Shown here one piece after another: positions 1,416-33,075 of a stretch of 64,000 nt of DNA. The translations under genes and the position numbers were made by a program. The DNA is taken from NCBI GenBank assembly GCA_050948865.1, contig JBMNEQ010000003.1:70831-134830 (forward strand), read 5' to 3'. The DNA is from Bacilli bacterium (GTDB taxonomy: Bacteria > Bacillota_I > Bacilli_A > RF39 > UBA660). Every line of letters starts with the position of its first letter. Position 1 is the stretch's first letter. The notes beneath the pieces were generated by a model, which was given only the letters and a program-made list of their open reading frames with translations, did not search any database and was not told where the DNA came from.

Positions 1416-3245
1416 ATGGGAAATGGATATTTAACAGGTTCTGCTTTAGCAATCGCGATCTTAATTACAGTTGTTTTATTTTCTAAAAAAAGTATTAAGA
1501 ATGTGGAAACTAAAATATTTAAAGGAATGTTAATTTGTAATATTTTAGAGGCTTTAACAACAACCATGATTGTTTTAGTTGCTTTAACTAGTAGATCACT
1601 TCCTTTATTTAAAATGTTAAATAGAATTGATATTATAATGATTATTACTTGGTCTAGTTTAATGTTTTATTATATTTATAATGTTTTAAGTAAAGAACCA
1701 AAAGAAAGTGTCAAAGTTTTTATTTATTTAGTAAATGCTATTTTTATGTTTTTTATATTCATTTTAGATGTTCATATTATTGCTGAAAAAGGGATATTAG
1801 ATTCTTATGGACCATTAACAACCTTCGGTTTATTGGGGGCTTCTTTTTATATAGTTTTAATGATAGGAACTTTATTATTTTTAAGAAATAGAAAAAAAGA
1901 AGTTGATCAAAAGAAATTTATTCCTTTTTATTTTTTAATCTTTTTATTAATAATAGCTGCTGGATTAAGAGTGATTATTCCAGAAATAAATTTTATTTCT
2001 ATTATTTTAAGTTTTGTTAATTTAATAATGATGTTTACGATTGAAAATCCTGATTTAAAATTAGTTAAAGAATTAAATGAAGCTAAAGAACAAGCTGAAA
2101 GGGCGAATAAAGCAAAAAGTGATTTTTTATCTAGTATGTCTCATGAAATAAGAACTCCTTTAAATGTTATTATCGGTTTAAGTGAAGATATTGCTTCATA
2201 TCAAAATGAAATTCCTAAAGAAGTGGAAGAAAACGTTCAGGATATATTAAATGCTTCTAATACTTTATTAGAGATAATAGGTAATATTTTAGATATTAGT
2301 CAAATAGAAAGTAATAAAATAAGATTAGTGGAAAAACCTTATGTTTTAAAAGAAGAAATAAAAAATTTAATAAATATTTTAAAACCACGAATAGGAGATA
2401 AAAAGATTGAATTAAAATTAAGTTTAGCTCCTGACCTTCCTTATGAATTAAAAGGAGATAAATTACAAGTTAAAAAAATAATTAATAACTTATTAACTAA
2501 TGCTATTAAATATACAGAAGAAGGTTTAATCCAATTAACTATAAATTGTATTAATGAAAATAATCATTGTCTTTTAATTATTAGTGTGCAAGATACAGGA
2601 AAAGGTATTAAAGCTAAAAATATTTATAAATTATTTACTAAGTTTGAACGCTTAGATATTGAAATGAATTCTACTGCTGAAGGAACAGGACTTGGTTTAG
2701 CAATTACGAAGTCGTTAGTTGATATTATGGGAGGCACAATTAATGTTCAAAGTCAATTTGGAAAAGGATCATTATTTGTTGTTCAAATTCCTCAAAGAAT
2801 TTCTAAAATGGTTGAACCTTATAATAAAGAAGTAATAAATACTAATAATTTAGAAGAAATAAAATATCAAGGGAAAAGGATTTTAGTTGTTGATGATAAT
2901 AAATTAAATCTTAAAGTAGTGAAAAAAGTTTTAACTAAATTTAATTTGGAAGTTGAAGAATGTGAAACTGGAGAAGAATGTTTAAAGAAAATAAATTCTA
3001 ACCAACATTATGATCTTATTTTTATGGATATTATGATGCCTGTTATGAATGGAGAAGAAGTTTTAAGAAAATTAAAAGAAATTCCTCATTTTAAGACACC
3101 TGTTATTGCTTTAACAGCTGATGCTGTTGTGGGAGCTAGAGAAAAATATTTGGCTGAGGGTTTCATTGATTATCTTCCTAAACCTTTTAATCAAGAACAA
3201 ATAAAAGAGAAATTAGATTTAATATTTAACGAAAAGGATTATTGA
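1416..3245 (+). CDS. hybrid sensor histidine kinase/response regulator (multi-TM sensor, HisKA, HATPase_c, REC)
   Basis: H box [10 protein letters not shown] box [11 protein letters not shown]1 DTGKGI, G2 GTGLGLAI. C-terminal receiver has VVDDN...FMDIMMP...ALTADA...KP. Confidence 0.85.
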
Positions 3246-6619: not shown

Positions 6620-7449
6620 CTATTATAAGTGGTAAAGGAGGAACTGGAAAAACAACTATTGCTGTAGGCCTTGGTGAAGTAATTAAGAATAGTATAAAAA
6701 TAGATTGTGATGTTGATGCTTCAAATATGAATTTATTTTATCAAGGTAAAGTAATTCGTCAAGAAAAGTTTTATTCAGGAAAAACAGCAGTTATTAATCA
6801 AGATCTTTGTCTTAAATGTAATAGATGTTTAGAACATTGTAAATTTGATGCTATTAATAATTATGTAATAAATGATCTTAAATGTGAAGGTTGTTTGGTT
6901 TGTAAGTTAGTTTGTCCTTCTTTGGCCATAACTTTTAAAGATAATTATATTGCTGATATTTATTTAAAAAGGTTAAAGAATGGTCGTTTAATTAAAGCGA
7001 AAATGAAAATAGGAGCTGCTGGTTCAGGGAAACTAATAACAGCATTAAGAAGCAAAATAATGGATTCTCAAGTAATAACTATCATTGATGCTTCACCAGG
7101 CCTTGGTTGCCCTGTAATCGCTTCTCTTACCAATGTTGATTTAGCTTTAATAGTTACAGAACCAACTTTATCAGCTTTTAAAGATTTAAAGCGTTTAGTT
7201 TTACTAACTAAAAAATTAAAAGTGAAAACTGTAGTTTCTATTAATAAATATAATCTTAATTTAAAAATAACTAAAAAAATAAAAGACTATTGTCAAAAGA
7301 ATAATCTAGAACTTTTAAGTTTAATTCCCTATGATCAATTAGTCTTAAAATCTATTCAAGAACTAAAACCAATTGTCACCTATCAAGATAGTTTAGCTGG
7401 TTTAGAAATTAAAAAACTTGCTCAAAAATTAATATTATTAAAAGAATAA
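6610..7449 (+). CDS. MinD/ParA-type P-loop ATPase with an inserted 2x[4Fe-4S] ferredoxin domain (paralog)
   Basis: N-terminus MQIAIISGKGGTGKTT. CLKCNRCLEHC and CEGCLVCKLVCP motifs. Overlaps the previous stop codon. Confidence 0.8.
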   Translation: MQIAIISGKGGTGKTTIAVGLGEVIKNSIKIDCDVDASNMNLFYQGKVIRQEKFYSGKTAVINQDLCLKCNRCLEHCKFDAINNYVINDLKCEGCLVCKLVCPSLAITFKDNYIADIYLKRLKNGRLIKAKMKIGAAGSGKLITALRSKIMDSQVITIIDASPGLGCPVIASLTNVDLALIVTEPTLSAFKDLKRLVLLTKKLKVKTVVSINKYNLNLKITKKIKDYCQKNNLELLSLIPYDQLVLKSIQELKPIVTYQDSLAGLEIKKLAQKLILLKE

Positions 7450-9840: not shown

Positions 9841-11655
9841 GTGCTTAATTTGAGTATTAATTTATATTTTCCTTTATCAGGTTTATTTTTTATTCTTTTT
9901 ATGTTAGGACTTTACTTCTCTAAAAAACGTTTAATAACTATAGAGAATAAACTTTATAGAAAACTTTTAGTGATTAGTTTAATAACTTTATTATTAAATA
10001 TTTTAGTAATAGCTTTTAATAATAATTCCTTTTTTATGATTATTTTCTTTAAATTAAACTTAATTTCTATCTTAGTTTGGTTTATGCTTTTAACTTTCCT
10101 TTTACAAGTTTTAACTTTAAAGAAAAAAGAAAGAACTAATGATTATTTTTCTAACTTATTTAAAAGAAGTTTATTTTGGATAATATCTTTTGGTTTAATA
10201 AGTAGTTTAATCTTATTAGTTTTACCAATTAAAAAAACTAACTATTTAGAAGGATATAGCCTTTATTTTCTTTATTTAATAATAACCTTTTTAATGATTA
10301 CTTGGTTTATTCGTTATTTAAAAAGAAATAAACGAATCAAAAGAAAACAAAATAGTATTTTATTAATAGTCTTTTTCTTAGTTTTTCTTATTACTTTAGG
10401 TCAAATATTTTATCCAGAATTTTTCTCTTTACTATTAATAATTTATTTAATACCAGTTGTTATTTATTTTTGGTTAGATAATTTTGATTTAGAACTATTA
10501 AACAAACTTAAAGAAGAAAAAGAACGGGCTAATTTAGCCGAAACAACAAAAATAGATCTTTTATTAAAAGCAACTCATGAAATAAGAACCCCTTTAAATA
10601 CAATCTTAGGCTTTAGTCAATCCATGATTGATGAAACCTCCTTAGAAAGTATTAAAGAAGATGCCAAGCAGATAAAAGAAGCCTCTAAAAAGCTTCTTCA
10701 TGTTATTGATAATATTTTAGATGTTTATAAACCAGAACATGAAGAAATTAGTTTTGTTTATAGTGAATATAATATTAATAATTTATTCAAACAAATAACT
10801 TCTTTAATAGAATCTAAATTAAAGAAAGAAGTAGAATTTAAGTTAGAAATAAGAAAAGAAATACCATCTGTTTTATATGGAGATAGTATTGTCATTAAAA
10901 AGATCTTACTTAATCTTTTAGAACATTCAGTTAAATATACTAAAGAAGGTTATATCAAGTTAAAAATAGATAATTTAACAATAGGTAATATTTGCCGTTT
11001 AAAAATAAGAATAGAAGATAGTGGAAGAGGAATCTCAGTTGATGAATTAGAAAAGATCTTTTTAGAAAAAAGAATTGATGAAAAAAGATTAAAAGAAGGA
11101 GAAGTAGACCTTAATTTAGCAACAACCAAAAGATTAATTGAATTAATGAATGGACAGTTTATAGTAGAAAGTGAATATAATGATGGAACAGTTTATAAAA
11201 TATCACTTGATCAAAAAACTTTAAAACCAGAAGAAAAAGAAGAACAACCTCTTACAGAAATAAATTATAAAGAATTTATTGGTAAAAAAATATTAGTGGT
11301 TGATGATGATCCTTTAAACTATAAAGTAGTTTCTAAATTATTAAAAGATTATCAATTAATAATAGACAGTGTTTCTAGTGGTAGAAAATGTTTAGAAAAG
11401 ATTAATAATCAAGAAGAATATGATTTAATTCTTTTAGATGACAGAATGCCTAATATGAGTGGAGTAGAAACTTTAAAAGAATTAGAAAAAGATAAAAAGT
11501 TTAATATCCCCGTTATTGCCTTAACGGCGAATGTTTCTTATGGTATTAAAGAAAAGTATTTACAAGAAGGATTTGATGATTATATCCCTAAACCAATTGA
11601 AAAGAAAGTCTTAGAAAAGGTTATTAAAAAATATTTAAGTATGGAAATTAGATAA
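9841..11655 (+). CDS. hybrid sensor histidine kinase/response regulator paralog with degenerate ATP-binding motifs
   Basis: H box THEIRTPLN and a REC domain (VVDDD...LLDDRMP...ALTAN...KP). The N box reads LLEHSVKYT and the G2 position reads EVDLNLA instead of GxGLGL. Confidence 0.8.
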   Translation: MLNLSINLYFPLSGLFFILFMLGLYFSKKRLITIENKLYRKLLVISLITLLLNILVIAFNNNSFFMIIFFKLNLISILVWFMLLTFLLQVLTLKKKERTNDYFSNLFKRSLFWIISFGLISSLILLVLPIKKTNYLEGYSLYFLYLIITFLMITWFIRYLKRNKRIKRKQNSILLIVFFLVFLITLGQIFYPEFFSLLLIIYLIPVVIYFWLDNFDLELLNKLKEEKERANLAETTKIDLLLKATHEIRTPLNTILGFSQSMIDETSLESIKEDAKQIKEASKKLLHVIDNILDVYKPEHEEISFVYSEYNINNLFKQITSLIESKLKKEVEFKLEIRKEIPSVLYGDSIVIKKILLNLLEHSVKYTKEGYIKLKIDNLTIGNICRLKIRIEDSGRGISVDELEKIFLEKRIDEKRLKEGEVDLNLATTKRLIELMNGQFIVESEYNDGTVYKISLDQKTLKPEEKEEQPLTEINYKEFIGKKILVVDDDPLNYKVVSKLLKDYQLIIDSVSSGRKCLEKINNQEEYDLILLDDRMPNMSGVETLKELEKDKKFNIPVIALTANVSYGIKEKYLQEGFDDYIPKPIEKKVLEKVIKKYLSMEIR

Positions 11656-11731: not shown

Positions 11732-11760
11732 TTGTCAATAAACTTAGTTTTTGGTATAAT
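11732..11760 (+). promoter_or_regulatory. sigma-A-like promoter of the DGR target gene
   Basis: TTGTCA (11732-11737), a 17-nt spacer ending in TGG, then TATAAT (11755-11760). Lies 27 nt upstream of the GTG start. Confidence 0.45.
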
Positions 11761-11787
11761 TAATCTAAAGGAAAGTAGGGAGATAAA

Positions 11788-13287
11788 GTGAAAAGAAAAC
11801 AAGGTTTTACTCTAATAGAACTATTAACAGTCATTATAGTCTTAATAATTATAGTTTCTATAGCAGTACCAAATATTATGAAAGTAGTAAATAACTCTAA
11901 AGAAAGATCATACCAGTTATTAATAGAATCAATTGAAAGTAGTGCTCAGTTATATGTATCTAAAGATCGAAAAACAGTAACTAATTACTTAAAGGAGCAT
12001 GAAGGAGATTCTTTTAAGATAACATTAAAGGATTTAGTAGGAGATGGTCTATTAAAAGATAAAATAATAAATCCCAGAAATAATGAAGTAATTTCTCTTA
12101 CGAAAAGTGTTTTAGTAATGTATTCAGATAAAGGCTCTTTATTGTATTGTTATGAGGATAAGGAGTGTCCTCTACCATGTGAGGCACCACTTCCTTCGCC
12201 TTTTCCGCCTAAATTAGATTCTGGAATGATTCCAATAAGATGGGATAAAGATAATAATAAATGGGTAAAAGCAGATATAACTGAGGAATGGTATGATTAT
12301 AATAAGAAGGAATGGGCTAATGCGGTGTTGGTAAATAGCGGTTCAAGGGCAACTTATCAATCAGCAGCTCCCGGAAAAGTTATATCAGAAAGTGATGTTT
12401 TAGTTTATTTAGTTTGGATTCCAAGATATAGATATAAGTTATTTAATGTAGAGTTTGCAGCAAAATCTCCACAAACAATTGAAATAGAGTTTGAAACAAG
12501 TACCGCTAATAAAGCAACTGGTAAAGCAAATAATACATGGTTAACGCATCCAGCTTTTACCTTTGGAACTGAAGAATTAACCGGCTTTTGGATAGGTAAA
12601 TTTGAAACAACAGGAAGTGAATCAAGTCCTTCAGTAAAACCAGGAATATCATCTGTTAGAGATAAGACGGTAAGTGAGTTGTATAATATGAACAAATTAT
12701 TTAATAATTTAACAACATATGGATTAACAAGTAGTAGTGATGCTCATATGTTAAAGAATATGGAATGGGGAGCAGTAGCGTATTTAAGTCATAGTAAATA
12801 TGGAAAAAATGCAGAAATAACAATTAATACAAGCTCTTCTTACTGTACAGGAGGGTCATGTAATATAACCGCTTATTTTAGTAATACAGGTCAAAGTACA
12901 ACTGGTAATGTTTATGGAGTATATGACATGAGTGGGGGAGCAAATGAATATGTAATGGGGGCGATGTATAAAAGTGGAGATAAAAATATAAATGTTTCTG
13001 ATTCAGGTTTTATTCAAGCAACAATTGATGGAGATACAATGGCAAAATATATAGATAAGTATAATTATGGAACTTCAGTTTCCGATTATAGTCGTTCAAA
13101 ATTAGGGGATGCTACAGGAGAAACTAGAGGATGGTATAGCGATTTTGCGGGCTTCGTTTACTCGAGTGATTCTTGGTTTGAACGTGGCGGCATCTACAAT
13201 ATTGGCAGCGATGCAGGAGCTTTCTACTTCTACAGAAGCTTTGGCAATGGTTACAGCTACTACGGTAGCCGCCTCGGGGTCGCGTGA
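11788..13287 (+). CDS. type IV pilin-like (prepilin N-terminal cleavage/methylation signal) protein with a C-terminal DGR variable region; DGR target protein
   Basis: N-terminus KRKQG/FTLIELLTVIIVLIIIV, a class III signal with Gly-1, Phe+1 and Glu+5. The last ~47 codons coincide with the VR. C-terminal ...RGGIYNIGSDAGAFYFYRSFGNGYSYYGSRLGVA resembles CLec/FGE-type DGR variable domains. Confidence 0.9.
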   Translation: MKRKQGFTLIELLTVIIVLIIIVSIAVPNIMKVVNNSKERSYQLLIESIESSAQLYVSKDRKTVTNYLKEHEGDSFKITLKDLVGDGLLKDKIINPRNNEVISLTKSVLVMYSDKGSLLYCYEDKECPLPCEAPLPSPFPPKLDSGMIPIRWDKDNNKWVKADITEEWYDYNKKEWANAVLVNSGSRATYQSAAPGKVISESDVLVYLVWIPRYRYKLFNVEFAAKSPQTIEIEFETSTANKATGKANNTWLTHPAFTFGTEELTGFWIGKFETTGSESSPSVKPGISSVRDKTVSELYNMNKLFNNLTTYGLTSSSDAHMLKNMEWGAVAYLSHSKYGKNAEITINTSSSYCTGGSCNITAYFSNTGQSTTGNVYGVYDMSGGANEYVMGAMYKSGDKNINVSDSGFIQATIDGDTMAKYIDKYNYGTSVSDYSRSKLGDATGETRGWYSDFAGFVYSSDSWFERGGIYNIGSDAGAFYFYRSFGNGYSYYGSRLGVA

Positions 13288-13305
13288 GCGGTCCGTTTTC
13301 CGCAG
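13146..13305 (+). repeat. DGR variable repeat (VR), including the invariant 3' IMH-like end
   Basis: 160 nt align without gaps to 14084-14243. There are 16 mismatches, 15 of them at template adenines. The last 44 nt are identical in both copies. Confidence 0.9.
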
Positions 13306-13325
13306 CGAGAGCTTTTAAGCTCTCG
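13306..13325 (+). other. GC-rich hairpin immediately 3' of VR (candidate DGR target-recognition hairpin/cruciform)
   Basis: CGAGAGCT-TTTA-AGCTCTCG (8-bp stem, 4-nt loop) starts at the first base after VR/TR identity ends. It is absent after TR. Confidence 0.6.
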
Positions 13326-13395
13326 TTTCATCAAAATAACCCAGATGGATAAGTGAAAGGACTTTGGTTTTTGAAGGCCTTTGGAAAGTGAAATG

Positions 13396-13426
13396 AACGA
13401 AATGGCCACTTTTCAGCCATTTCGTT
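13396..13426 (+). other. stem-loop (11-bp stem)
   Basis: AACGAAATGGC-cacttttca-GCCATTTCGTT. No U-tract follows, so it is not a canonical terminator. Confidence 0.45.
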
Positions 13427-13481
13427 TCGAGTAAAATCGTTATAGGGGGGTACTAAAATTTTTTGTGGTACTTTTGAGTAA

Positions 13482-13519
13482 ATATCCTTCCGAGCCACGG
13501 TAGGGGCTCGGAAGGATAT
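13482..13519 (+). other. stem-loop (perfect 15-bp stem)
   Basis: ATATCCTTCCGAGCC-acggtagg-GGCTCGGAAGGATAT, G+C-rich relative to its surroundings. Confidence 0.5.
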
Positions 13520-13622
13520 AGGGAATTTGTCACCACTTCTTACGAAGTAGGGAGTGGTGCTAATTTCCTAAAACAAGGTTTTTATTTTTAATATTAGTAG
13601 AATATATTGCTGAGGAGGTGAA

Positions 13623-13982
13623 ATTATTAATTTAGTTATATTGAATGGAAGATTAGTAAGGGATCCGGAATTAAAGTTTACTGATTCTCAGATTCCATAT
13701 GTAAAAGTTTGCCTTGCCATTGATAGGATTTATAGTGATGATAAAGGAAAAAAATTAACTGACTTTATCGATGTTACTTTTTTTAGGAAACAAGCGGAAT
13801 TAATTCATAAATATTTGGATAAAGGAAGTCAAGTTTTAATACAAGGTAAATTAAAAACAAATTCATATAAAAATAAAGATGGGGAGAAAAGATATTCTTT
13901 GGATGTAATAGGGGATACTGTTCAGTTTTTAGAGACTAGGGCTCAAGCTGAAGCTAGGCGAAAGGAGGCTAAAGAAGAATAA
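13623..13982 (+). CDS. ssb: single-stranded DNA-binding protein (OB fold), lacking the acidic C-terminal tip; probable ATT start
   Basis: (I)INLVILNGRLVRDPEL...FIDVTFFRKQAE...GSQVLIQGKL is the canonical SSB N-terminal OB pattern. GGAGG lies at 13614-13618. No canonical start precedes the conserved beta-1 strand. The protein ends ...RRKEAKEE rather than DDDIPF. Confidence 0.75.
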   Translation: MINLVILNGRLVRDPELKFTDSQIPYVKVCLAIDRIYSDDKGKKLTDFIDVTFFRKQAELIHKYLDKGSQVLIQGKLKTNSYKNKDGEKRYSLDVIGDTVQFLETRAQAEARRKEAKEE

Positions 13983-14005
13983 ATAAAATTAAAAGAGTAG
14001 GACTA

Positions 14006-14060
14006 CTTATAGTACCAAATATGTTTTTAATGTTATTTAAATTATATTTGGTACTATAAG
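14006..14060 (+). other. perfect 17-bp inverted repeat (hairpin) between ssb and TR
   Basis: CTTATAGTACCAAATAT (14006-14022) and ATATTTGGTACTATAAG (14044-14060) with a 21-nt loop. Ends 23 nt before TR. Confidence 0.5.
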
Positions 14061-14083
14061 GGTACTAGGGATTAAGTCGTAAG

Positions 14084-14243
14084 TGCGAACTTCGTTAACT
14101 CGAGTTATTCTTGGTTTAAACGTGGCGGCAACTACAATAATGGCAGCAATGCAGGAGCTTTCAACTTCAACAGAAACAATGGCAATGGTAACAGCAACAA
14201 CGGTAGCCGCCTCGGGGTCGCGTGAGCGGTCCGTTTTCCGCAG
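14084..14243 (+). repeat. DGR template repeat (TR)
   Basis: Intergenic copy of the VR, rich in AAC/AAT codons when read in the VR frame (...NYNNGSNAGAFNFNRNNGNGNSNNGS...). The 5' boundary is approximate. Confidence 0.9.
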
Positions 14244-14244
14244 A

Positions 14245-14321
14245 CTACATTATTAAAACATTAAATTGTTTTACTAAAAATGTATAGTTTAAGGACTATA
14301 CTTAAAGGTATTATAATGTAG
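14245..14321 (+). other. nested three-stem RNA structure directly 3' of TR (candidate DGR RNA spacer element)
   Basis: Closing stem CTACATTAT (14245-14253) pairs with ATAATGTAG (14313-14321). It encloses hairpins TAAAACA/TGTTTTA (14254-14273) and GTATAGT/ACTATAC (14282-14301). Confidence 0.35.
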
Positions 14322-14461
14322 AGATTTAATTCCTTTCTTAAATGTTAATTTAAGATAAACACATTAATGTAATTTTTTGGTTAGTAGTAAAATGGCGAAT
14401 ATCAAAACATTACACATTAAGGGGGATAATTCCCCCTTGAAATTTATGAAAGGGTTTATTA

Positions 14462-14635
14462 ATGAATAAGTTATTTGATTTGAAATTAACAAATTTAAAT
14501 TTAGAAGTTTTAAAATGTGGTTTTTCTTTAAACAATTTAGAAAAATATATGGAGAAATTTAAAGAAAAAAATTTAAAAGTAGCGATCATAGAAAATAAAA
14601 AGATATTTTTTTATATTCTCGTTATAATGATATGA
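14462..14635 (+). CDS. 57-aa ORF with MutS domain-I-like segment (possible MutS-like DGR accessory protein)
   Basis: Below the ORF-track length cutoff. Its TGA overlaps the avd ATG (ATGA coupling). CGFSLNNLEKYMEKFKEKNLKVAIIEN aligns without gaps to MutS [27 protein letters not shown] at 10 of 27 positions. Confidence 0.4.
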   Translation: MNKLFDLKLTNLNLEVLKCGFSLNNLEKYMEKFKEKNLKVAIIENKKIFFYILVIMI

Positions 14636-14949
14636 TTTATTATGCTTATGATCTTTTATTAAAATATCCTAAAAGTGAAAGGTTTGCCCTTGTCGTTGAT
14701 ATAAAAAATATTATATATGAGGGTATGAGGGATGTAATTAAGATTCAGAAGGAACTTGATTATGGTGTAAAAATTAAATATTTACATGAATTGGATGTTA
14801 ATTTAAAATTATTAAAAGTTTTTGTTCGTTTATCTTTTAAAAGAAAATATATTAGTGAAAAAAACTATGAGGTGTGGAGTAGGCATATTACTCATATTAG
14901 CAATTTAATGGGAGGATTAATTAAGCATGCCAAAAACAATAAAGAATAG
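14632..14949 (+). CDS. avd: DGR accessory variability determinant (Avd-like four-helix-bundle protein)
   Basis: 105-aa helical protein with YPKSERFALV near the N-terminus and ISEKNYEVWSRHITHISNLMGGLIKH near the C-terminus. Overlaps the RT start by 23 nt. Confidence 0.75.
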   Translation: MIYYAYDLLLKYPKSERFALVVDIKNIIYEGMRDVIKIQKELDYGVKIKYLHELDVNLKLLKVFVRLSFKRKYISEKNYEVWSRHITHISNLMGGLIKHAKNNKE

Positions 14950-16039
14950 TTTTAATAATAAACTTACTTTTATGAATTTATATAAAGCTTATTTGCGTGC
15001 TAGAATGAATAAACCTAGTAGGGCAGAAATCTTTCTTTATGAAATTGACTTAGAAACGAATTTAACAAATTTATTAAATAATTTAAAAAAGGGAACATAT
15101 AAATTAGGTAAATATAGATCTTTTACTATTTATGAACCTAAAAAAAGGTTAATTAAATCTTTACCATTTGTTGATAGAATTGTTCATCAATGGATTGTAG
15201 AGGAGTTTATTAAACCTTTTTTTGTTCCTCGTTTTATTAATACTAACTGTGCTTGTATAGAGGGAAGGGGAACTCATTTTGCGGTGTTTAAGGTTCAAGA
15301 ATATATGCGAAAAATGAAAGTTATTTCGAATGATTATTATATTTTGAAATGTGATATTAAAAAATACTTTTACAGTATTGATAAAGGAATTTTATTTAAT
15401 ATTATTGCTAAGAAAATAAAAGATAAAAAACTATTAAAATTAATTGAAGTTTTAATTTATGATGATGATAATGATGTTGGAATTCCCATAGGAAATTATA
15501 CATCTCAATATTTTGCTAATATATATTTAGGGGAACTTGATAATTATATTAAATATAAATTAAGGATTAAATATATAGTTAGATATATGGATGATTTTGT
15601 TATTTTAGTTAAAAACAAAGAAGAAGCTAAAAGATATTATGGGTTGATTCAACAGTTTTTAAGAGATAATTTAAAATTAGAATTAAATCCTAAAAGTAAT
15701 TATTATCCATCGAAAATGGGGGTTAATTTTTGTGGTTATCGTATTTTTGAAACACATAGATTATTAAGAGAGAAAAGTAAGAAAAAAGTAAAGAAAAAAA
15801 TAAAAGGATGGAATAAAGAATTTTTAAAAAACAAAATGTTATTTAATAAAATAGTTTTATCATGGAATTCTTGGCTTGCTCATTCTTCGCATGCGAATAG
15901 TTATAAATTACAAAAAAAGTTATATAATAGAATTATCTTTAAAGGATTTTTAAAAAATCCTAATTCTTTAAATAAAGATAATATTAAAAACTTTAATATT
16001 GGTGAATTTATTGTTTATGATGATTATAATAATCATTAA
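14927..16039 (+). CDS. DGR-type reverse transcriptase
   Basis: YEPKKRLI...DRIVHQ (motifs 1-2), IPIGNYTSQYFANIYL (the DGR-typical SQ motif), and RYMDDFVIL (the YxDD catalytic motif). No RNase H, maturase or endonuclease domain. Confidence 0.9.
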   Translation: MPKTIKNSFNNKLTFMNLYKAYLRARMNKPSRAEIFLYEIDLETNLTNLLNNLKKGTYKLGKYRSFTIYEPKKRLIKSLPFVDRIVHQWIVEEFIKPFFVPRFINTNCACIEGRGTHFAVFKVQEYMRKMKVISNDYYILKCDIKKYFYSIDKGILFNIIAKKIKDKKLLKLIEVLIYDDDNDVGIPIGNYTSQYFANIYLGELDNYIKYKLRIKYIVRYMDDFVILVKNKEEAKRYYGLIQQFLRDNLKLELNPKSNYYPSKMGVNFCGYRIFETHRLLREKSKKKVKKKIKGWNKEFLKNKMLFNKIVLSWNSWLAHSSHANSYKLQKKLYNRIIFKGFLKNPNSLNKDNIKNFNIGEFIVYDDYNNH

Positions 16040-16600
16040 TAATTGAAGCTGTATTTTTAAAGTTTACTTTAGAACACATTAATAATTTATTTAAATTATA
16101 TTTGTTTATTATTTTAAAAGCTGTTTTTTTTGTTTTATAATTAGCCCCATAAGGTAAAGCGATTTTTAGTTCATTGCTTAGTTTTTCCATTTCTTTGATA
16201 AAAAAGTATCTACTTATTATAGAAGCACAGGCGACACTTAAATGGACTTCTTCAGCTTTTACTAAAAATTCAACATTTTTAATAATCTTTTTATTTCCAT
16301 TTAAATATTTAAAGTATTTTTTTTCCTTAACAAATTTATCAATAATAATATAGTCATAATTTTTTATTGTTTTTGTAATTTCTATTAATACTTTATTATG
16401 TAAAATAGCTTTTATTTGATTTAAATTTAAGTTTAAACTGTTATATTCTTTATTTTTTAAGATAATAGATTTAGATGGTATATATTTTAATAATTTTAAA
16501 GCAATCTTTTTAATTTTAAAATCAGGAATTTTTTTAGAGTCTTTAACATTTAATTTTTTTAAAAAATTAATATCTTCCTTTTTTACATAGGTAGCGGTTA
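16008..16600 (-). pseudogene. RNase HIII-type ribonuclease H, 3' fragment (gene split by an IS insertion)
   Basis: Minus-strand frame is open from 16600 to the stop at 16008. It reads ...VKDSKKIPD...IIIDKF...KAEEVHLSVACASIISRYFF...LPYGAN. It overlaps the RT 3' end by 32 nt. Confidence 0.7.
16574..16600. repeat. 27-bp target-site duplication, left copy
   Basis: CTTCCTTTTTTACATAGGTAGCGGTTA is identical to 18278-18304. Confidence 0.85.
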
Positions 16601-16707
16601 AGTGATTAACTTATGATAATGTCTTAAGTGTTATCTTTTGATTATGTCTCAAAAGTAATTTATAATATATCACTGAGGTGATATGAATGAGAAAGGAACA
16701 ATTAAGA

Positions 16708-18084
16708 ATGAATGAACAAAAGAAATATGAAATTATTAAAAAGTTAGTAGAACAAGGAGGAAGCAAAAATCGGGTTGCATTATAACTATCTTTATCTAGA
16801 AGACAAATTGATCGTCTTTTAATTATTTATAAAAAAAGAGGTAAATCTGGTTTTATACATGGCAATCGAAATAAGAAACCCAGTATAGCACACGATAAAT
16901 CTCTTTCTGATGATATTGTACTACTTTATACTATTAAATATCAAGGTTTTAATTTTAATCATTTTAAAGAATATCTTGAAGAAGTTGAAAACATAAAGGT
17001 CTCTTATAATTTTATTTATAATACTTTAAATAAGGCAGGTATTTTATCGCCTAGGGCTCGTAAAAGAACTAGAAAGGAATATAGAAAACAACAATTGTTA
17101 AAAGAAAAATTACTGACTGGTAAAACTGAAGAAGAAGTAGAAGTTATTGTTAATAATGAGATAGCAATTGAGGATTCTCACCCAAGGCAAGAAAAACCAA
17201 AATACTTCGGAGAAATTATTGAACAAGACGGTTCAATACACCAATGGTTTGGGGATTTTAAAACATGTCTTCATCTAGCTGTAGATAAAGCAACAAACAC
17301 AGTTGTCGGCGGTTATTTTGACTATCAGGAAACTTTAAAGGGTTATTATCAAACCAAATATCAAATCCTAAAAGGTTATGGCATTCCTTATAGTTTTAAA
17401 ACAGATAATAGAACTGTATTCAATTATAACAAATTAAACCCTGATAAAAAAACATCTGAAAATGATATCCTTACCCAGTATGGTTATTCATGTAAACAAC
17501 TAGGTATTGATTTAAAAACAAGTAGTGTTCCTGAAGCAAAACCAATTATTGAACGTACTAACGGTACATTTCAAGGAAGACTAATTAATGAGTTAAAATT
17601 AAACGGAATACACACACTTGAAAAAGCTAATGAATATTTAATAAATGTTTTTATTCCTAAATATAATAAACGCTTTGCTATGGATTATAAGAAGTTTCCA
17701 AGTGCATTTGAAAAATCACCTAGTGAAGAAAAAATAAATTATACTTTAGCAGTTTTATCAACAAGAATAATAGATAGAGGTAATTCCATTAAATATAAAA
17801 ACAAGTATTATTTACCTTATTTTAATAATGAGTTAAAATGCTTCAGGCCTAAAACTAAAGCATTAGTTATTGAAGCATTTAATGGTGATTTAGTGGTGAG
17901 TATAGACGAAAAAATTTATGAGTTAAGAGAACTGTCCAGAAATAAAAGGTTTTCAAAAGAACTTGATCTACCTCAGGAAGAAATAAAAAAGGAAAAATAT
18001 GTGCCCCCTATGAGTCATCCTTGGAAAAGAGCTTCTTTTGAGAAACAAATGAAAAAATCTCATAAAGAAAAGGTTTATGCATAA
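16708..18084 (+). pseudogene. ISNCY-type DDE transposase with a premature in-frame TAA at codon 26
   Basis: MNEQKKYEIIKKLVEQGGSKNRVAL*LSLSRRQIDRLL...; the stop is at 16783-16785. The frame then runs open to 18084. The ORF-track start at 17095 is an internal TTG. Confidence 0.7.
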
Positions 18085-18106
18085 ACGAGTTTTATGCCGA
18101 GATAAT

Positions 18107-18208
18107 CCATCAATTTAGGAGATAATATCCGTAATGTTTCAGGCAATCAAATTAAAAATTTGATTGCCATCTAACTAAAGGATATTATCTAGATTCCTGA
18201 ATTGATGG
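18107..18208 (+). other. long imperfect hairpin inside the IS right end
   Basis: Central 12-bp stem GGCAATCAAATT/AATTTGATTGCC (18142-18169), an 11-bp stem AGATAATATCC/GGATATTATCT (18120-18130 with 18180-18190), and an outer stem CCATCAATTTAGG/CCTGAATTGATGG. Confidence 0.5.
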
Positions 18209-18277
18209 AGGAATTGGAATAAATTTTCCAAACTATTTTTTTTATCTAATGTGAGACATTTTCAAAAGTTATTGACA

Positions 18278-18304
18278 CTTCCTTTTTTACATAGGTAGCG
18301 GTTA
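18278..18304. repeat. 27-bp target-site duplication, right copy
   Basis: Identical to 16574-16600. Confidence 0.85.
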
Positions 18305-18389
18305 CGATTATAGGACCAAAGTAATCACCTGTTCCTACTTCGTCAGTTCCTATGCTGTTAGTATTATAGAAAAATGTTTTTGTTTTCAT
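18278..18389 (-). pseudogene. RNase HIII-type ribonuclease H, 5' fragment
   Basis: ATG at 18389 preceded by AAAGGTG. Reads MKTKTFFYNTNSIGTDEVGTGDYFGPIIVTATYVKKE, containing the RNase HII/HIII DE-G-GD-GP catalytic motif. Confidence 0.7.
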
Positions 18390-18477: not shown

Positions 18478-18834
18478 ATGAAGGATATTACTATATTAAA
18501 AGATAATGGTGTTGATGTTGATCGGGGAATAGAATTATTTGGGGATCTAGATACTTATAATGAAATGTTGGAAGATTTTATTCAAGAAGTAGAAAAAAAG
18601 ATGGGGAGGATTAATTCTTTTAAAGAAGAGAAGGATTTAGAAAATTATTCAATTTTGGTTCATTCTTTAAAGGGTGATGCAAAGTATTTTGGTTTTACTA
18701 AATTAGGGGAACTTGCTTATCAGCACGAATTAGAAAGTAAAAGTGGTAATCTTGATTTTGTTCAAGAGAATTATTTAAAATTAGAGGAAGAATTTAAGAG
18801 AATAATGGATATATTAAAAAGATATTTGGAATAG
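18478..18834 (+). CDS. stand-alone Hpt (histidine phosphotransfer) domain protein
   Basis: 118-aa helical protein with the HSLKGDAKYFG phosphorylatable-His motif. Confidence 0.75.
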   Translation: MKDITILKDNGVDVDRGIELFGDLDTYNEMLEDFIQEVEKKMGRINSFKEEKDLENYSILVHSLKGDAKYFGFTKLGELAYQHELESKSGNLDFVQENYLKLEEEFKRIMDILKRYLE

Positions 18835-30290: not shown

Positions 30291-30965
30291 GTGATAAAGA
30301 GAAAGAAAATAATTATTATTAGCAGTTTTATTTTGCTAGGGGGATTATTCTTTTATTTTTCTTCATTGAAGAAAGAAGAAGAAGAAGAAGAAAAAGAACC
30401 AGAACTTTTAATTGTTCAAAAAGAGGAAAAAGAAGAAATCAAAGAAAATTATGTTGTTGATATAAAAGGAGCTATTATTAAGCCCCAGGTTTATGAAATA
30501 GAAGTTGGGAAAAGGGTTATTGATGTGATTAATAAAGCTGGAGGCTTAACGAAAGAGGCAGATACTAGTGTTATAAATTTAAGTAAAAAGGTTATTGATG
30601 AGATGGTTATTATAATTTATACTAAAAAAGAAATAGAAGATTTTAAAAAGAAATTAAAGGAACCAACCTTAATAGAAGTAATAAAATATATTGAAAAAAA
30701 TGATTGTCCTGATCCTTTAATTAATGATGCTTGTCTTAATAACTCTTCTGATGATGTTTTAAAAGAAAATAAGGGTTTAGTTTCTCTTAATGAAGCTTCA
30801 TTAGGGGAATTATTGACTTTAACTGGTATTGGTGAAGTTAAAGCTTTAGCAATTATTGATTACCGTGAAGAAAATGGTCCTTTTAAAAGCATTGAAGAAT
30901 TAATGGAGGTTAAAGGGATAGGGGAAAGCATTTTTGCTAAAATTAAGGATTATATTACTATCTAA
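30291..30965 (+). CDS. comEA: competence protein ComEA (DNA receptor)
   Basis: N-terminal anchor, an SLBB-like segment (VDIKGAI.KPQVYE), and a C-terminal HhH pair (LNEASLGELLTLTGIGEVKALAIIDYRE..G.F.SIEEL..VKGIG). Confidence 0.8.
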   Translation: MIKRKKIIIISSFILLGGLFFYFSSLKKEEEEEEKEPELLIVQKEEKEEIKENYVVDIKGAIIKPQVYEIEVGKRVIDVINKAGGLTKEADTSVINLSKKVIDEMVIIIYTKKEIEDFKKKLKEPTLIEVIKYIEKNDCPDPLINDACLNNSSDDVLKENKGLVSLNEASLGELLTLTGIGEVKALAIIDYREENGPFKSIEELMEVKGIGESIFAKIKDYITI

Positions 30966-33075
30966 TTTTCTTTATTTTAGTTTTGTTATTCTTAGTTTAA
31001 TTATTGCTTTAATAAATATAAGTTATTTTTCTAAAACTAGTTTATATACTTTAGCTGATACGGTAGTAGAAGGTTATATTCATGCTTTAAATATTGAGGG
31101 GAATCATTTACAATTAGAAGTAAGAGGTAAAGAAAAAGTTTTGGTTAATTACTATTTTAAAACTTATCAAGAAAAGAAAGAGTTTAATCTTTGTTTAGGA
31201 GATTATATAAAAGCAGAGGGAACTTTTTCTTTACCTAGTGAAAATAGAGTTTTTAATTTATTTAATTATCGGAAGTATTTATCTTATAATGGTATTTTTT
31301 ATTTAGTTAAAGCTAAAGAAATAATCAAATTAAAATCTTCTAATAAAATAAGATATAAGTTTAAACAAGGGGTTATTAATAGAATTTCTTTATTAAGAAG
31401 GTCTTCTAGTTATGTTCAAACCTTTATTTTAGGTAATAAAAAGGGAATTGATCCTTTTGTTTATCAGTCTTATCAAGAAAATGGAGTAAGTCATTTATTT
31501 GCGCTATCAGGAATGCATGTTAGTTTATTAGCCTTAATTTTATTGTTTATTTTAAAAAATTTAAAAGTTGATGAAGTTAAAAGTTATATAATTACTGTTT
31601 TATTCTTGTTTTGTTATGCTTTTTTAGCTGATTTTACTGCTTCTATTATGAGGGCAACTCTTTTTTTTACTTTATTAGGAATTAATAGAATTTATTACTT
31701 TCATATTAAAACTTTAAATATTTTAGGAGTAACTTTTTCTTTATTAATTTTGTTTAATCCTTATTTTCTTTATGACATTGGTTTTCAATTTTCTTTGATT
31801 ATTAGTTTTTATTTAATTTTATTTCAAGAATTAATTAATAAATATTCTTCATATTTAGGTAAAACTTTAATAGTATCTTTTATTGCTTTTTTAGCAAGTA
31901 TTCCTATTACGATTAATAACTTTTTTATGATTAATTTATTTACTCCTTTTTATAACTTAATTTTTGTTCCTTTAGTTTCTTTTCTTGTTTTACCAATATC
32001 TTTACTAACTTTTGTTTTTCCAATCCTTGATCAAGTTTTATCTTTAATAATAATGATGATGGAAAGTATTTCTTTATTTATTAATAAATTATCAGTAGGG
32101 ACTTTAATTTTATCTAAACCATCAATATTTATTCTTATTCTTTATTATTTAGTTATTACTTTTGTTTTATTAGAGTTTTTATATAATCGTTATTATTATT
32201 TTCTTTTAATAGTAATTTTATTATTTGTTCATACTAATAGTAATTATTTTAAGAAAATTCCTTATTTAGTTTTTATTGATGTTGGACAAGGTGATTCTAT
32301 TTTAATAAATTTACCTTCTAATAAGGGAACCATTTTAGTTGATACTGGGGGAGAATATAAATTTAATTTTTTAAATTGGCAACAAAAAAGAAAACCTTTT
32401 TCTTTAGGAAAAGATCTAATTATTCCTTATCTTCGTTCTGAAGGAATTAAAAAAATTGATTATTTAGTTTTAACTCATGGTCATATTGATCATTTAGGAG
32501 AAGCTTTGATGATTATTAATAATTTTCCAGTTAAAACAGTAGTTTTGGGGAAATCTTCTTTAACAGAGATTGAAGAGGATCTGATTAAAGAATTAAAAAG
32601 AATAAAAAAGCCTTATTTATTTTTGGGCGCTGATGATGTTTTAAGATTAAAAGAATTTACTTTTTATGTTTTAAATCCTAATGATGATAATAATCCTAAT
32701 GATGATAGTCTTGTTCTTTATTTTAGATTAAATCAACAATCTGTTTTATTAACAGGAGATATCTCTAAAAGTATTGAATATAAATTAATTAATACATATA
32801 ATCTTTTTAATGTGGATATACTAAAAGTAGGTCATCATGGCTCTTATACTAGTAGTAGTGAAGAATTTTTAGATATTTTAAATCCTTTATATGGTGTTAT
32901 TATGGTTGGGGAGAATAATAAGTTTGATCATCCCCATCCGCAAGTTTTAAAAAGATTAGAAGAACGTTTGGTGAAAACCTTTTTAACTAGTGAACAAGGA
33001 AGTATAAAATTCTTTTTAAAAAAAGAAGGAGTAACTTTTAAAACAGTGAAGCCATATGATATTTTAGAACACTAA
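30934..33075 (+). CDS. comEC: DNA internalization competence protein ComEC/Rec2
   Basis: Polytopic competence domain (GVSHLFALSGMHV) plus a C-terminal metallo-beta-lactamase domain (LTHGHIDHLG). Confidence 0.85.
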   Translation: MLKLRIILLSNFLYFSFVILSLIIALINISYFSKTSLYTLADTVVEGYIHALNIEGNHLQLEVRGKEKVLVNYYFKTYQEKKEFNLCLGDYIKAEGTFSLPSENRVFNLFNYRKYLSYNGIFYLVKAKEIIKLKSSNKIRYKFKQGVINRISLLRRSSSYVQTFILGNKKGIDPFVYQSYQENGVSHLFALSGMHVSLLALILLFILKNLKVDEVKSYIITVLFLFCYAFLADFTASIMRATLFFTLLGINRIYYFHIKTLNILGVTFSLLILFNPYFLYDIGFQFSLIISFYLILFQELINKYSSYLGKTLIVSFIAFLASIPITINNFFMINLFTPFYNLIFVPLVSFLVLPISLLTFVFPILDQVLSLIIMMMESISLFINKLSVGTLILSKPSIFILILYYLVITFVLLEFLYNRYYYFLLIVILLFVHTNSNYFKKIPYLVFIDVGQGDSILINLPSNKGTILVDTGGEYKFNFLNWQQKRKPFSLGKDLIIPYLRSEGIKKIDYLVLTHGHIDHLGEALMIINNFPVKTVVLGKSSLTEIEEDLIKELKRIKKPYLFLGADDVLRLKEFTFYVLNPNDDNNPNDDSLVLYFRLNQQSVLLTGDISKSIEYKLINTYNLFNVDILKVGHHGSYTSSSEEFLDILNPLYGVIMVGENNKFDHPHPQVLKRLEERLVKTFLTSEQGSIKFFLKKEGVTFKTVKPYDILEH

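Follow-up and report, generated by a model that had tools for sequence, protein, structure and literature searches.

A stretch of 64,000 nucleotides from the genome of a Bacilli bacterium (lineage UBA660; assembly GCA_050948865.1, contig JBMNEQ010000003.1, positions 70,831 to 134,830 of the forward strand), referred to below as the window and numbered from its own first letter, carries what we are highly confident is a chromosomal diversity-generating retroelement (DGR), apparently of the type that contains a MutS-like (MSL) gene, in which a target gene with its variable repeat (VR), a template repeat (TR), msl, avd and a gene for a reverse transcriptase (RT) follow one another on the plus strand. 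In mechanism and in all of its core parts the element corresponds to a classical DGR; DGRs are a well-known class, of which tens of thousands have already been catalogued. The locus offers a clean case in which a DGR is directed at a modular type IV pilin, a less-described class of target. Its principal features are as follows.

11788..13287, plus strand: DGR target gene, 499 amino acids, a predicted modular type IV pilin with the VR at its C-terminus
13146..13305, plus strand: VR, with a mutated part (13150-13261) and an invariant 3' part (13262-13305) that resembles an initiation of mutagenic homing (IMH) sequence
13305..13326, plus strand: inverted repeat able to form a hairpin or cruciform, with 8 Watson-Crick pairs and the 4-nt loop TTTA, starting where the VR/TR homology stops
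14084..14243, plus strand: TR, non-coding, with the same sequence in the sibling strain L003
14266..14413, plus strand: RT-14-type structured RNA, 3' of the TR, presumed to be the DGR RNA spacer
14462..14635, plus strand: remnant of the MSL gene, 57 amino acids, shortened by a 135-bp deletion
14606..14615, plus strand: junction of the 135-bp deletion, the remaining copy of a 10-bp direct repeat, TTTTTTTATA
14632..14949, plus strand: avd, 105 amino acids, lacking both a ribosome-binding site and its 15 initial conserved codons
14927..16039, plus strand: DGR reverse transcriptase, 370 amino acids, with YMDD and IGNYTSQYFANIYL

A repeat search and a base-by-base comparison demonstrated that segments 13146-13305 and 14084-14243 constitute a 160-nt direct repeat, ungapped and with 90% identity, at exactly the positions that had been proposed in a first-pass annotation made from the sequence alone. 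The two copies differ at 16 positions, corresponding (from TR to VR) to 10 A>T, 5 A>G and a single T>G at TR position 14106, with none at a TR cytosine or guanine; this tally, also given in the annotation, was the same on recount. Fifteen of the 16 mismatches fall on a TR adenine, of which there are 43 in the 160 nt (hypergeometric p=4.4e-9), and all 16 occupy the first or second codon positions of the open reading frame (ORF) at 11788-13287. When read in the frame of the target, the TR contains 14 AAY codons and 22 variable codons, corresponding to approximately 1e22 possible proteins, and stop codons can be reached by mutation from only two TR codons; the corresponding peptides (...RGGNYNNGSNAGAFNFNRNNGNGNSNNGSRLGVA from the TR and ...RGGIYNIGSDAGAFYFYRSFGNGYSYYGSRLGVA from the VR) had been correctly derived in the earlier annotation. 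The final 44 nt of the two copies are identical (13262-13305 = 14200-14243) and, as had been remarked for this AT-rich genome, conspicuously rich in G+C (local GC 0.50, as compared with 0.25 across the window). In the VR this invariant part includes the stop codon of the target (13285-13287), and a 21-nt core of the segment is present within the 64 kb in the VR and TR copies only. The 3' signal shared by the two repeats reads GGTAGCCGCCTCGGGGTCGCG.

The two repeats could also be compared with those of a closely related strain. The 90% cluster of the target protein contained two further sequences, one of which (P0242) originates from a 788-kb JGI contig, L003, that shares the chromosomal context of the window, with 100% identity over 6761, 980 and 1995 bp of flanking DNA (approximately 9.7 kb with 0 differences). 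Between these two genomes the TR is identical and the VR, in a comparison of two alleles, differs at 26 positions: 22 correspond to a TR adenine, two to a TR guanine, one to a TR thymine (that at which the window VR also departs from the TR) and one to the invariant 3' segment. The enrichment for adenine is highly significant (Fisher p=1.4e-11). Because the VR of L003 is changed at TR adenines with the TR itself unchanged, this comparison supports the view that mutagenic retrohoming has taken place in the recent past of this lineage. The same pattern, of VR variation at template adenines against a constant TR, was what the first-pass annotation had anticipated from population data, and the signature that it had read as mutagenic retrohoming is supported by the adenine-specific changes between the two strains.

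The assignment of the RT to the DGR clade, also proposed at first pass, is supported by its match scores. The solved structure that it matches best is that of the Bordetella DGR RT (8ub7; E 7.7e-51, 176 bits, with residues 4-325 aligned), whereas group II intron RTs reached at best 1.4e-20 and 77 bits in the same structure-database comparison, and retron, Cas-RT and Drt/Drt3a enzymes scored below these. The ORF at 14927-16039 possesses both the YMDD motif and the IGNYTSQYFANIYL motif (the IGxxxSQ-type motif 4) noted previously; in the alignment to Bordetella bRT, motif IPIGNYTSQYFANIY pairs with IPIGSLTSQLFANVY and segment IGNYTSQYFANIY pairs with IGSLTSQLFANVY. Among profile collections, the phage RT family phrog_1423 was matched at 388 bits and the PADLOC models of defense RTs at a maximum of 98 bits (DRT classes), and the NCBIfam models that were matched by name (group II intron, Drt3a and retron) all fell far under their cutoffs (for example, 112 versus 300 bits). 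Homologues of the RT in public data number in the thousands, the best 120 of which display approximately 54-69% identity, and a search of genome contigs returned 13 loci at 46-59% identity. In 11 related loci (L002, L008, L010, L011, L013-L017, L098 and L100) an adenine-specific TR/VR pair of their own lies beside the homologous RT.

Two structured elements accompany the repeats. The inverted repeat at 13305-13326, immediately beyond the VR, is predicted to fold as DNA with an energy of -8.6 kcal/mol (z -4.9); in BPP-1 and other DGRs, a target-recognition hairpin with a stem of 7-10 bp and a 4-nt loop of GRNA consensus has been described (Guo et al. 2011, PMC3240598). Downstream of the TR, positions 14266-14413 match the full length of the Rfam model RT-14 (RF02921, model positions 1-144) with 45.8 bits and an E-value of 2e-5, which is only slightly under the gathering score of 48.1; when the whole window was scanned at Rfam gathering thresholds, two tRNAs alone were reported, and the RT-14 match was seen in E-value mode. 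In loci L011-L017 the same motif scores 112-114 bits and begins no more than a few nucleotides from where a bona fide TR stops on its 3' side (in L011, at 6892-7038), locus L008 has a match of 44.5 bits after its TR (2429-2566) much like that in the window, and the core motifs of RT-14 are conserved in 10 loci. When this series of RNA motifs was described, RT-10 alone was tied to a DGR (as the spacer between TR and RT in BPP-1), and the other RT motifs were speculated to act alike (Weinberg et al. 2017, PMC5737381). The placement of RT-14, hitherto an orphan Rfam motif, directly 3' of bona fide TRs backs that suggestion and, by analogy, suggests that RT-14 is a DGR spacer and priming RNA that would bind RT-Avd and prime cDNA synthesis.

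By the model to which these parts point, a complex of RT and Avd would bind an RNA that spans the TR (14084-14243) together with its RT-14-like neighbor, the presumed spacer (14266-14413), the TR RNA would be reverse-transcribed with misincorporation opposite template adenines, and the resulting cDNA would be exchanged for the VR (13146-13305) in the 3'-terminal part of gene 11788-13287. Homing to the VR would be directed by the identical G+C-rich 3' segment of 44 nt, together with the hairpin just downstream of it, and the expected outcome is a C-type-lectin domain, joined to a type IV pilin module, that varies at as many as 22 codons on its ligand-binding face. The model established for Bordetella BPP-1 is our basis for inferring that the spacer RNA primes synthesis, that the hairpin has its targeting role and that the lectin is displayed on a pilus.

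The target protein begins with a prepilin signal (MKRKQG/FTLIELL, that is G/FTLIE, with Glu+5), a feature absent from the first-pass annotation, and its N-terminus matches Pfam N_methyl PF07963 (24.4 bits, cutoff 21.2) and TIGR02532 (18.8, cutoff 16.3), partially matches ComGC, GspG and PilA, and aligns to the pilins MshA, PilE and GspG in the PDB. An AlphaFold model (78 homologues, mean pLDDT 91) consists of a helix (residues 9-59), a small beta/pilin domain, a Pro-rich linker of low confidence (129-137) and a C-terminal domain (approximately 140-499), for which the best Foldseek matches are the DGR variable proteins TaqVP (5vf4, 3e-8) and TvpA (2y3c, 5e-3). Together, the pilin N-terminus and the TaqVP/TvpA-like fold predicted for the C-terminal domain mark the target, on this model, as a modular type IV pilin carrying a grafted C-type-lectin domain of the DGR type. 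Its family of homologues comprises at least 7995 matches, of which the members with a named source are, for the most part, labeled as prepilins or proteins of type II secretion and come from metagenome-assembled genomes of uncultured Bacilli or Mollicutes; the closest homologue (P0122) is 74% identical. The lectin domain would probably be displayed on a Com- or type IV-like filament as a variable adhesin. Genes for the DNA-uptake proteins ComEA and ComEC are located at 30291-33075, and the host is probably equipped with a competence machinery, to which a ComGC-like pilin could belong. In the literature searched, no papers were found that link modular type IV pilins to DGRs, with the exception of one line, in PMC11661182, that enters 'GspG-type pilin' as one of the rare domains to bear a VR. 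Outside the VR, six nucleotide differences in the target gene (at 12830 and 13000-13036) separate three near-identical strains and lead to five amino-acid changes (T348K, D405A, I409A, D416N and T417P), all of them nonsynonymous, in the lectin domain and not templated by the TR; the approximately 9.7 kb of flanking DNA, by contrast, shows no differences. These changes at residues 348 and 405-417 may be compensatory, or selected near the binding site. The most promoter-like site of the gene lies directly upstream.

11732..11760, plus strand: promoter-like site of the target gene (TTGTCA-17-TATAAT, TG upstream), matching 11 of 12 consensus positions and the best in the region, by consensus match only

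The two accessory genes between the spacer RNA and the RT were identified by profile matches and by comparison with related loci. The 105-residue ORF at 14632-14949, noted earlier as Avd-like, matches Pfam bAvd (69.4 bits, cutoff 40; E 4.4e-19) and phrog_3206 ('Avd protein of DGR'). Its identity is accordingly secure and its intactness is not, since the protein is 120 residues long in the sibling strain L003 (P0249), and the 15 N-terminal residues missing from the window, which are conserved in seven relatives, presumably make up most of helix 1, as judged by alignment to the BPP-1 Avd sequence. The ATG of avd overlaps the TGA of the preceding ORF (ATGA). That ORF is a weak match to MutS_I (1.2e-3, 19.4 bits, cutoff 20.6); it encodes 57 amino acids in the window, 98 in L003 and 131-138 in the relatives L098-L100. 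MutS_I ORFs are found at the equivalent position in L002, L098, L099 and L100, which are the closest relatives by RT and possess the same gene order as the window (target-TR-MSL-Avd-RT), and tblastn matches to MSL are present in 11 of 17 related DGR loci. The MSL gene of L002 (4081-4478) is itself broken by a 1-nt frameshift, being either a pseudogene or an assembly error, and L100 (4365-5255) appears to contain two tandem TR-plus-spacer units upstream of msl.

The difference in length between the two strains is explained by a segment of 135 bp (L003 14533-14667, bounded by the 10-bp direct repeats TTTTTTTATA) that is missing from the window and from a further assembly, L004; the deletion allele of L004 and the intact allele of L003 come from the same metagenome. 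A programmed -1 frameshift at T-AAA-AAG (14596-14602), by which the MSL remnant would be fused to Avd, was considered and rejected, as L003 reveals a deletion scar at this place. The description of the element as a complete DGR, given in the first-pass annotation, is doubtful on account of msl and the start of avd, both of which were struck by the deletion.

The interval between the VR and the TR is occupied by several elements that were not described in the first-pass annotation.

13327..13600, plus strand: G+C-rich array of four or five strong hairpins, long and near-perfect, in a genome of 25% GC (RNA fold z -8.1)
13626..13982, plus strand: tail-less gene for a single-stranded DNA-binding protein (SSB), approximately 118 amino acids from ATT 13626 or 113 amino acids from TTG 13641 (Pfam SSB 1.4e-27)
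14006..14060, plus strand: AT-rich inverted repeat of 26 nt between ssb and the TR, 88% complementary and followed by the conserved motif AGGGATTAA

The hairpin array belongs to no significant Rfam family (best E ~1), occurs a single time in the window and was absent from related loci, and was not matched in phage and plasmid collections, where the adjoining 5' end of ssb alone was matched (by a plasmid). The SSB, which also matches TIGR00621 and phrog_44, is an orphan whose nearest homologues in a homologue search display no more than 48% identity. The 5' end of its gene aligns to ssb of the Clostridioides difficile plasmid pTW11, the ATG of which corresponds to ATT 13626 in the window; the true start is probably this ATT, mutated from an ancestral ATG. 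The SSB is absent from all 17 related DGR loci and adjoins one of 80 loci of target homologues, which is itself without a DGR. Because the VR-TR spacing amounts to 938 nt in the window as compared with approximately 360-390 nt typical of the clade, we read the hairpins and the SSB as a probable lineage-specific insertion, a passenger of the mobile-element type. The TR-proximal flank, by the inverted repeat at 14006-14060, is common to L002, and this repeat may be a terminator or a processing site. An exact 18-nt direct repeat, TTATTTAAATTATATTTG, is also present at 14033-14050 and 16087-16104, on either side of the TR-msl-avd-RT module; a repeat as long or longer arose in 2 of 200 Markov shuffles, and the pair may be a trace of insertion of the module, or a product of chance.

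The surroundings of the element bear out the earlier description of a chromosomal setting with no phage structural genes nearby. The flanking genes are of a housekeeping nature (histidine kinases, RNase III, SMC, ComEA/ComEC, gyrase, FtsZ and sporulation genes), and a scan of the window ORFs as far as approximately 52.8 kb disclosed no gene for a phage structural protein. Because the window contains ComEA, ComEC, sporulation and cell-wall genes, the host, an uncultured Firmicute of low GC content, is read as walled, spore-forming and probably competent; genetic code 4, brought up by the Mollicutes-like names of homologues, was rejected in view of the long ORFs under code 11. The cassette is bounded on its 3' side by an insertion sequence (IS) that is not part of the DGR.

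16601..18277, plus strand: ISNCY/IS1202-type IS of 1677 bp with a 27-bp target duplication, which splits rnhB
16008-16600 and 18278-18387, minus strand: remnants of rnhB (RNase HII), convergent with the RT gene and interrupted by the IS

The IS matches NCBIfam transpos_ISNCY_2 with 248 bits (cutoff 250), and its transposase has a premature stop in the window copy and a length of 465 amino acids in L003. In L003 rnhB is intact, and the same IS instead lies in the 5' end of ssb (equivalent to window positions 13636-13663, with a 28-bp duplication), between ssb and its ribosome-binding site; another IS is found there upstream of the target gene. The 3' end of rnhB overlaps that of the convergent RT gene by approximately 30 nt. 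The cassette and the IS sit between a hybrid histidine kinase/response-regulator gene (9841-11655) and an Hpt gene (18478-18834), which look like components of a single phosphorelay, and a paralogous hybrid kinase is encoded at 1416-3245.

An alternative account of the locus would hold that the repeat pair is an ordinary duplication or gene-conversion tract, that the RT belongs to some other system (a group II intron, a retron or a defense system), and that the adenine bias reflects AT-biased mutation. The genome is indeed very AT-rich (25% GC), and group II intron, Drt3a and retron models are the only RT families matched by name in NCBIfam; those matches, however, lie far under cutoff, with the DGR RT structure and the phage DGR RT profile scoring much higher, and Rfam disclosed no intron RNA domains and no retron msr/msd. 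The mismatches, moreover, are strand-specific (15 A and 1 T), confined to one copy and to codon positions 1 and 2, and between strains the TR stays constant as the VR changes. We therefore regard such an origin as scarcely credible. A number of observations nevertheless weigh against the interpretation as a functional, pilin-targeted DGR or against parts of it: (i) the 3' ends of VR and TR are identical, with no IMH/IMH* difference within the window repeat to mark directionality; (ii) the hairpin at 13305-13326 fits that of Guo et al. in position and geometry, and its loop, TTTA, is off the GRNA consensus; (iii) a consensus scan found no promoter for the TR; (iv) the Avd ORF reaches 71.6 bits against NCBIfam DivGenRetAVD, below its cutoff of 80; (v) an RT or TR lies within 6 kb in only one of 80 metagenomic loci of target homologues, as obtained in a target-family alignment search, which accordingly yielded no additional VR alleles; (vi) the window ORFs scanned, to approximately 52.8 kb, included neither pilus assembly genes (ComG/Pil) nor a gene for a prepilin peptidase; (vii) the 135-bp deletion reduced the MSL-like ORF from 98 to 57 amino acids and removed the ribosome-binding site and 15 codons of avd; and (viii) the two deletion-bearing sequences, the window and L004, have identical VRs with three differences elsewhere in 6.5 kb, which is weak evidence that the deleted allele has stopped diversifying. 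As gauged by its gene neighborhoods, the target family does not depend on a DGR in cis, and such linkage is exceptional.

The last of these points bear on whether the element, genuine as a DGR, is dead or crippled in the window strain, with Avd or the RT-Avd complex disabled, the VR frozen and ordinary point mutation the sole remaining source of change. We give this an even chance, and the odds that the window allele still diversifies are likewise about even; the element may have been weakened or inactivated by the deletion. The loss of the avd ribosome-binding site and of 15 codons conserved in seven relatives, the shortening of msl, the retention of the same VR in the window and L004 although two nonsynonymous differences separate them in other parts of the lectin domain, and a locus in flux (as witnessed by IS activity and a disrupted rnhB) all speak for inactivity. 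Against it, the RT ORF, the TR, the RT-14 RNA, the IMH-like segment and the hairpin are all intact, stop-start coupling at ATGA could still permit translation of a shortened avd that keeps 105 of 120 residues, the deletion allele is represented by two assemblies only, whose common VR may reflect a single clone, and DGRs without Avd do exist (approximately 26% in Wu et al. 2018, PMC5758913). The near-identical strain pair, which differs almost solely in the VR and comprises one strain with intact msl and avd and one with the 135-bp deletion, constitutes a natural experiment on the need for the Avd N-terminus and MSL in retrohoming. Returning to the interval between the repeats, the SSB and the hairpin array might alternatively be functional parts of the DGR, the former protecting or delivering cDNA and the latter extending the target recognition signal. 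Both lie inside the cassette and on the same strand, the sibling strains show 100% identity here, and the SSB lacks an acidic C-terminal tail, a trait that would allow it to bind single-stranded DNA without recruiting host repair proteins. This reading is unlikely when set against the absence of the SSB from the 17 related DGR loci and its one occurrence among 80 target-homologue loci beside no DGR, a VR-TR spacing that fits an insertion, a start codon (ATT) where the plasmid homologue has ATG, a closest resemblance to plasmid and phage SSBs, and the diversification of the L003 VR although an IS splits its SSB from the ribosome-binding site. The combined scenario of a spore-former that shows a DGR-diversified adhesin on a competence-type filament and has, in addition, recruited a tail-less SSB as a cDNA-handling DGR factor is likewise unlikely; to our knowledge, an SSB-type accessory that handles single-stranded cDNA is undescribed for any DGR. 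Read as an insertion, the SSB inside the cassette makes for an unusual passenger, one whose possible role is open to testing.

When compared with known systems, the element recalls the prototype DGR of Bordetella phage BPP-1 (mtd-VR, avd, TR, brt), with which it shares adenine-specific mutagenesis from TR to VR, an avd gene (shortened in the window), a target ORF that carries its VR 3'-terminally, and an RT that is homologous to bRT over its whole length, the IGxxxSQ and YMDD motifs included. In both, an invariant 3' segment rich in G+C precedes a hairpin with 8 bp in its stem and 4 nt in its loop, and a structured RNA lies 3' of the TR (RT-10 in BPP-1, PMC5737381; RT-14-like in the window). 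They differ in that the BPP-1 element is phage-borne and that of the window chromosomal, in gene order (avd-TR-brt in BPP-1, TR-msl-avd-RT in the window), in the hairpin loop (GRNA type versus TTTA), in the lack of IMH/IMH* mismatches from the window repeat, and in the target, which is a tail-fiber protein in BPP-1 and a predicted pilin fusion here. DGRs that contain an MSL gene, the Legionella DGR included, have been grouped as Architecture D, with MSL proteins of 112-283 amino acids (Wu et al. 2018, PMC5758913). The window resembles this architecture in having what is probably the remnant of a small ORF similar to MutS domain I, together with avd, beside the RT (L098-L100 carry MutS_I ORFs of 131-138 amino acids in that place), and departs from it in that the MSL has been eroded to 98 amino acids in L003 and 57 in the window, under the published range.

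At the level of the target, the variable proteins TaqVP of Thermus aquaticus (5VF4) and TvpA of Treponema denticola (2Y3C) exhibit the C-type-lectin/formylglycine-generating-enzyme-like fold that is predicted here, with the VR likewise at the C-terminus. Sequence identity to either amounts to 13-15% only, and the window protein has an N-terminal anchor in the form of a type IV pilin module; TvpA is a lipoprotein. Pilus subunits have recently been encountered as DGR targets in Bacteroides, where the adhesive module of the type V pilus tip adhesin is reported to be varied (bioRxiv 10.1101/2024.11.15.621889). The pilin-targeting DGR of the window parallels these elements, in that the adhesive part of a pilus subunit is diversified in a bacterium that is host-associated or anaerobic, from which it is separated by pilus type (type V as opposed to type IV/Com-like), by phylum and by the targets themselves, and the same report contains no mention of type IV pilins or Firmicutes. 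The modular design of the target has a precedent in PilB and PilC of Streptococcus sanguinis, type IV pilins in which a ligand-binding module (in PilC, a lectin) is grafted onto a pilin N-terminal module (PMC8179133, PMC9934059). The window target would share with them this design and, presumably, its presentation on a filament, and differs in that its grafted module is a hypermutated C-type-lectin domain of the DGR type.

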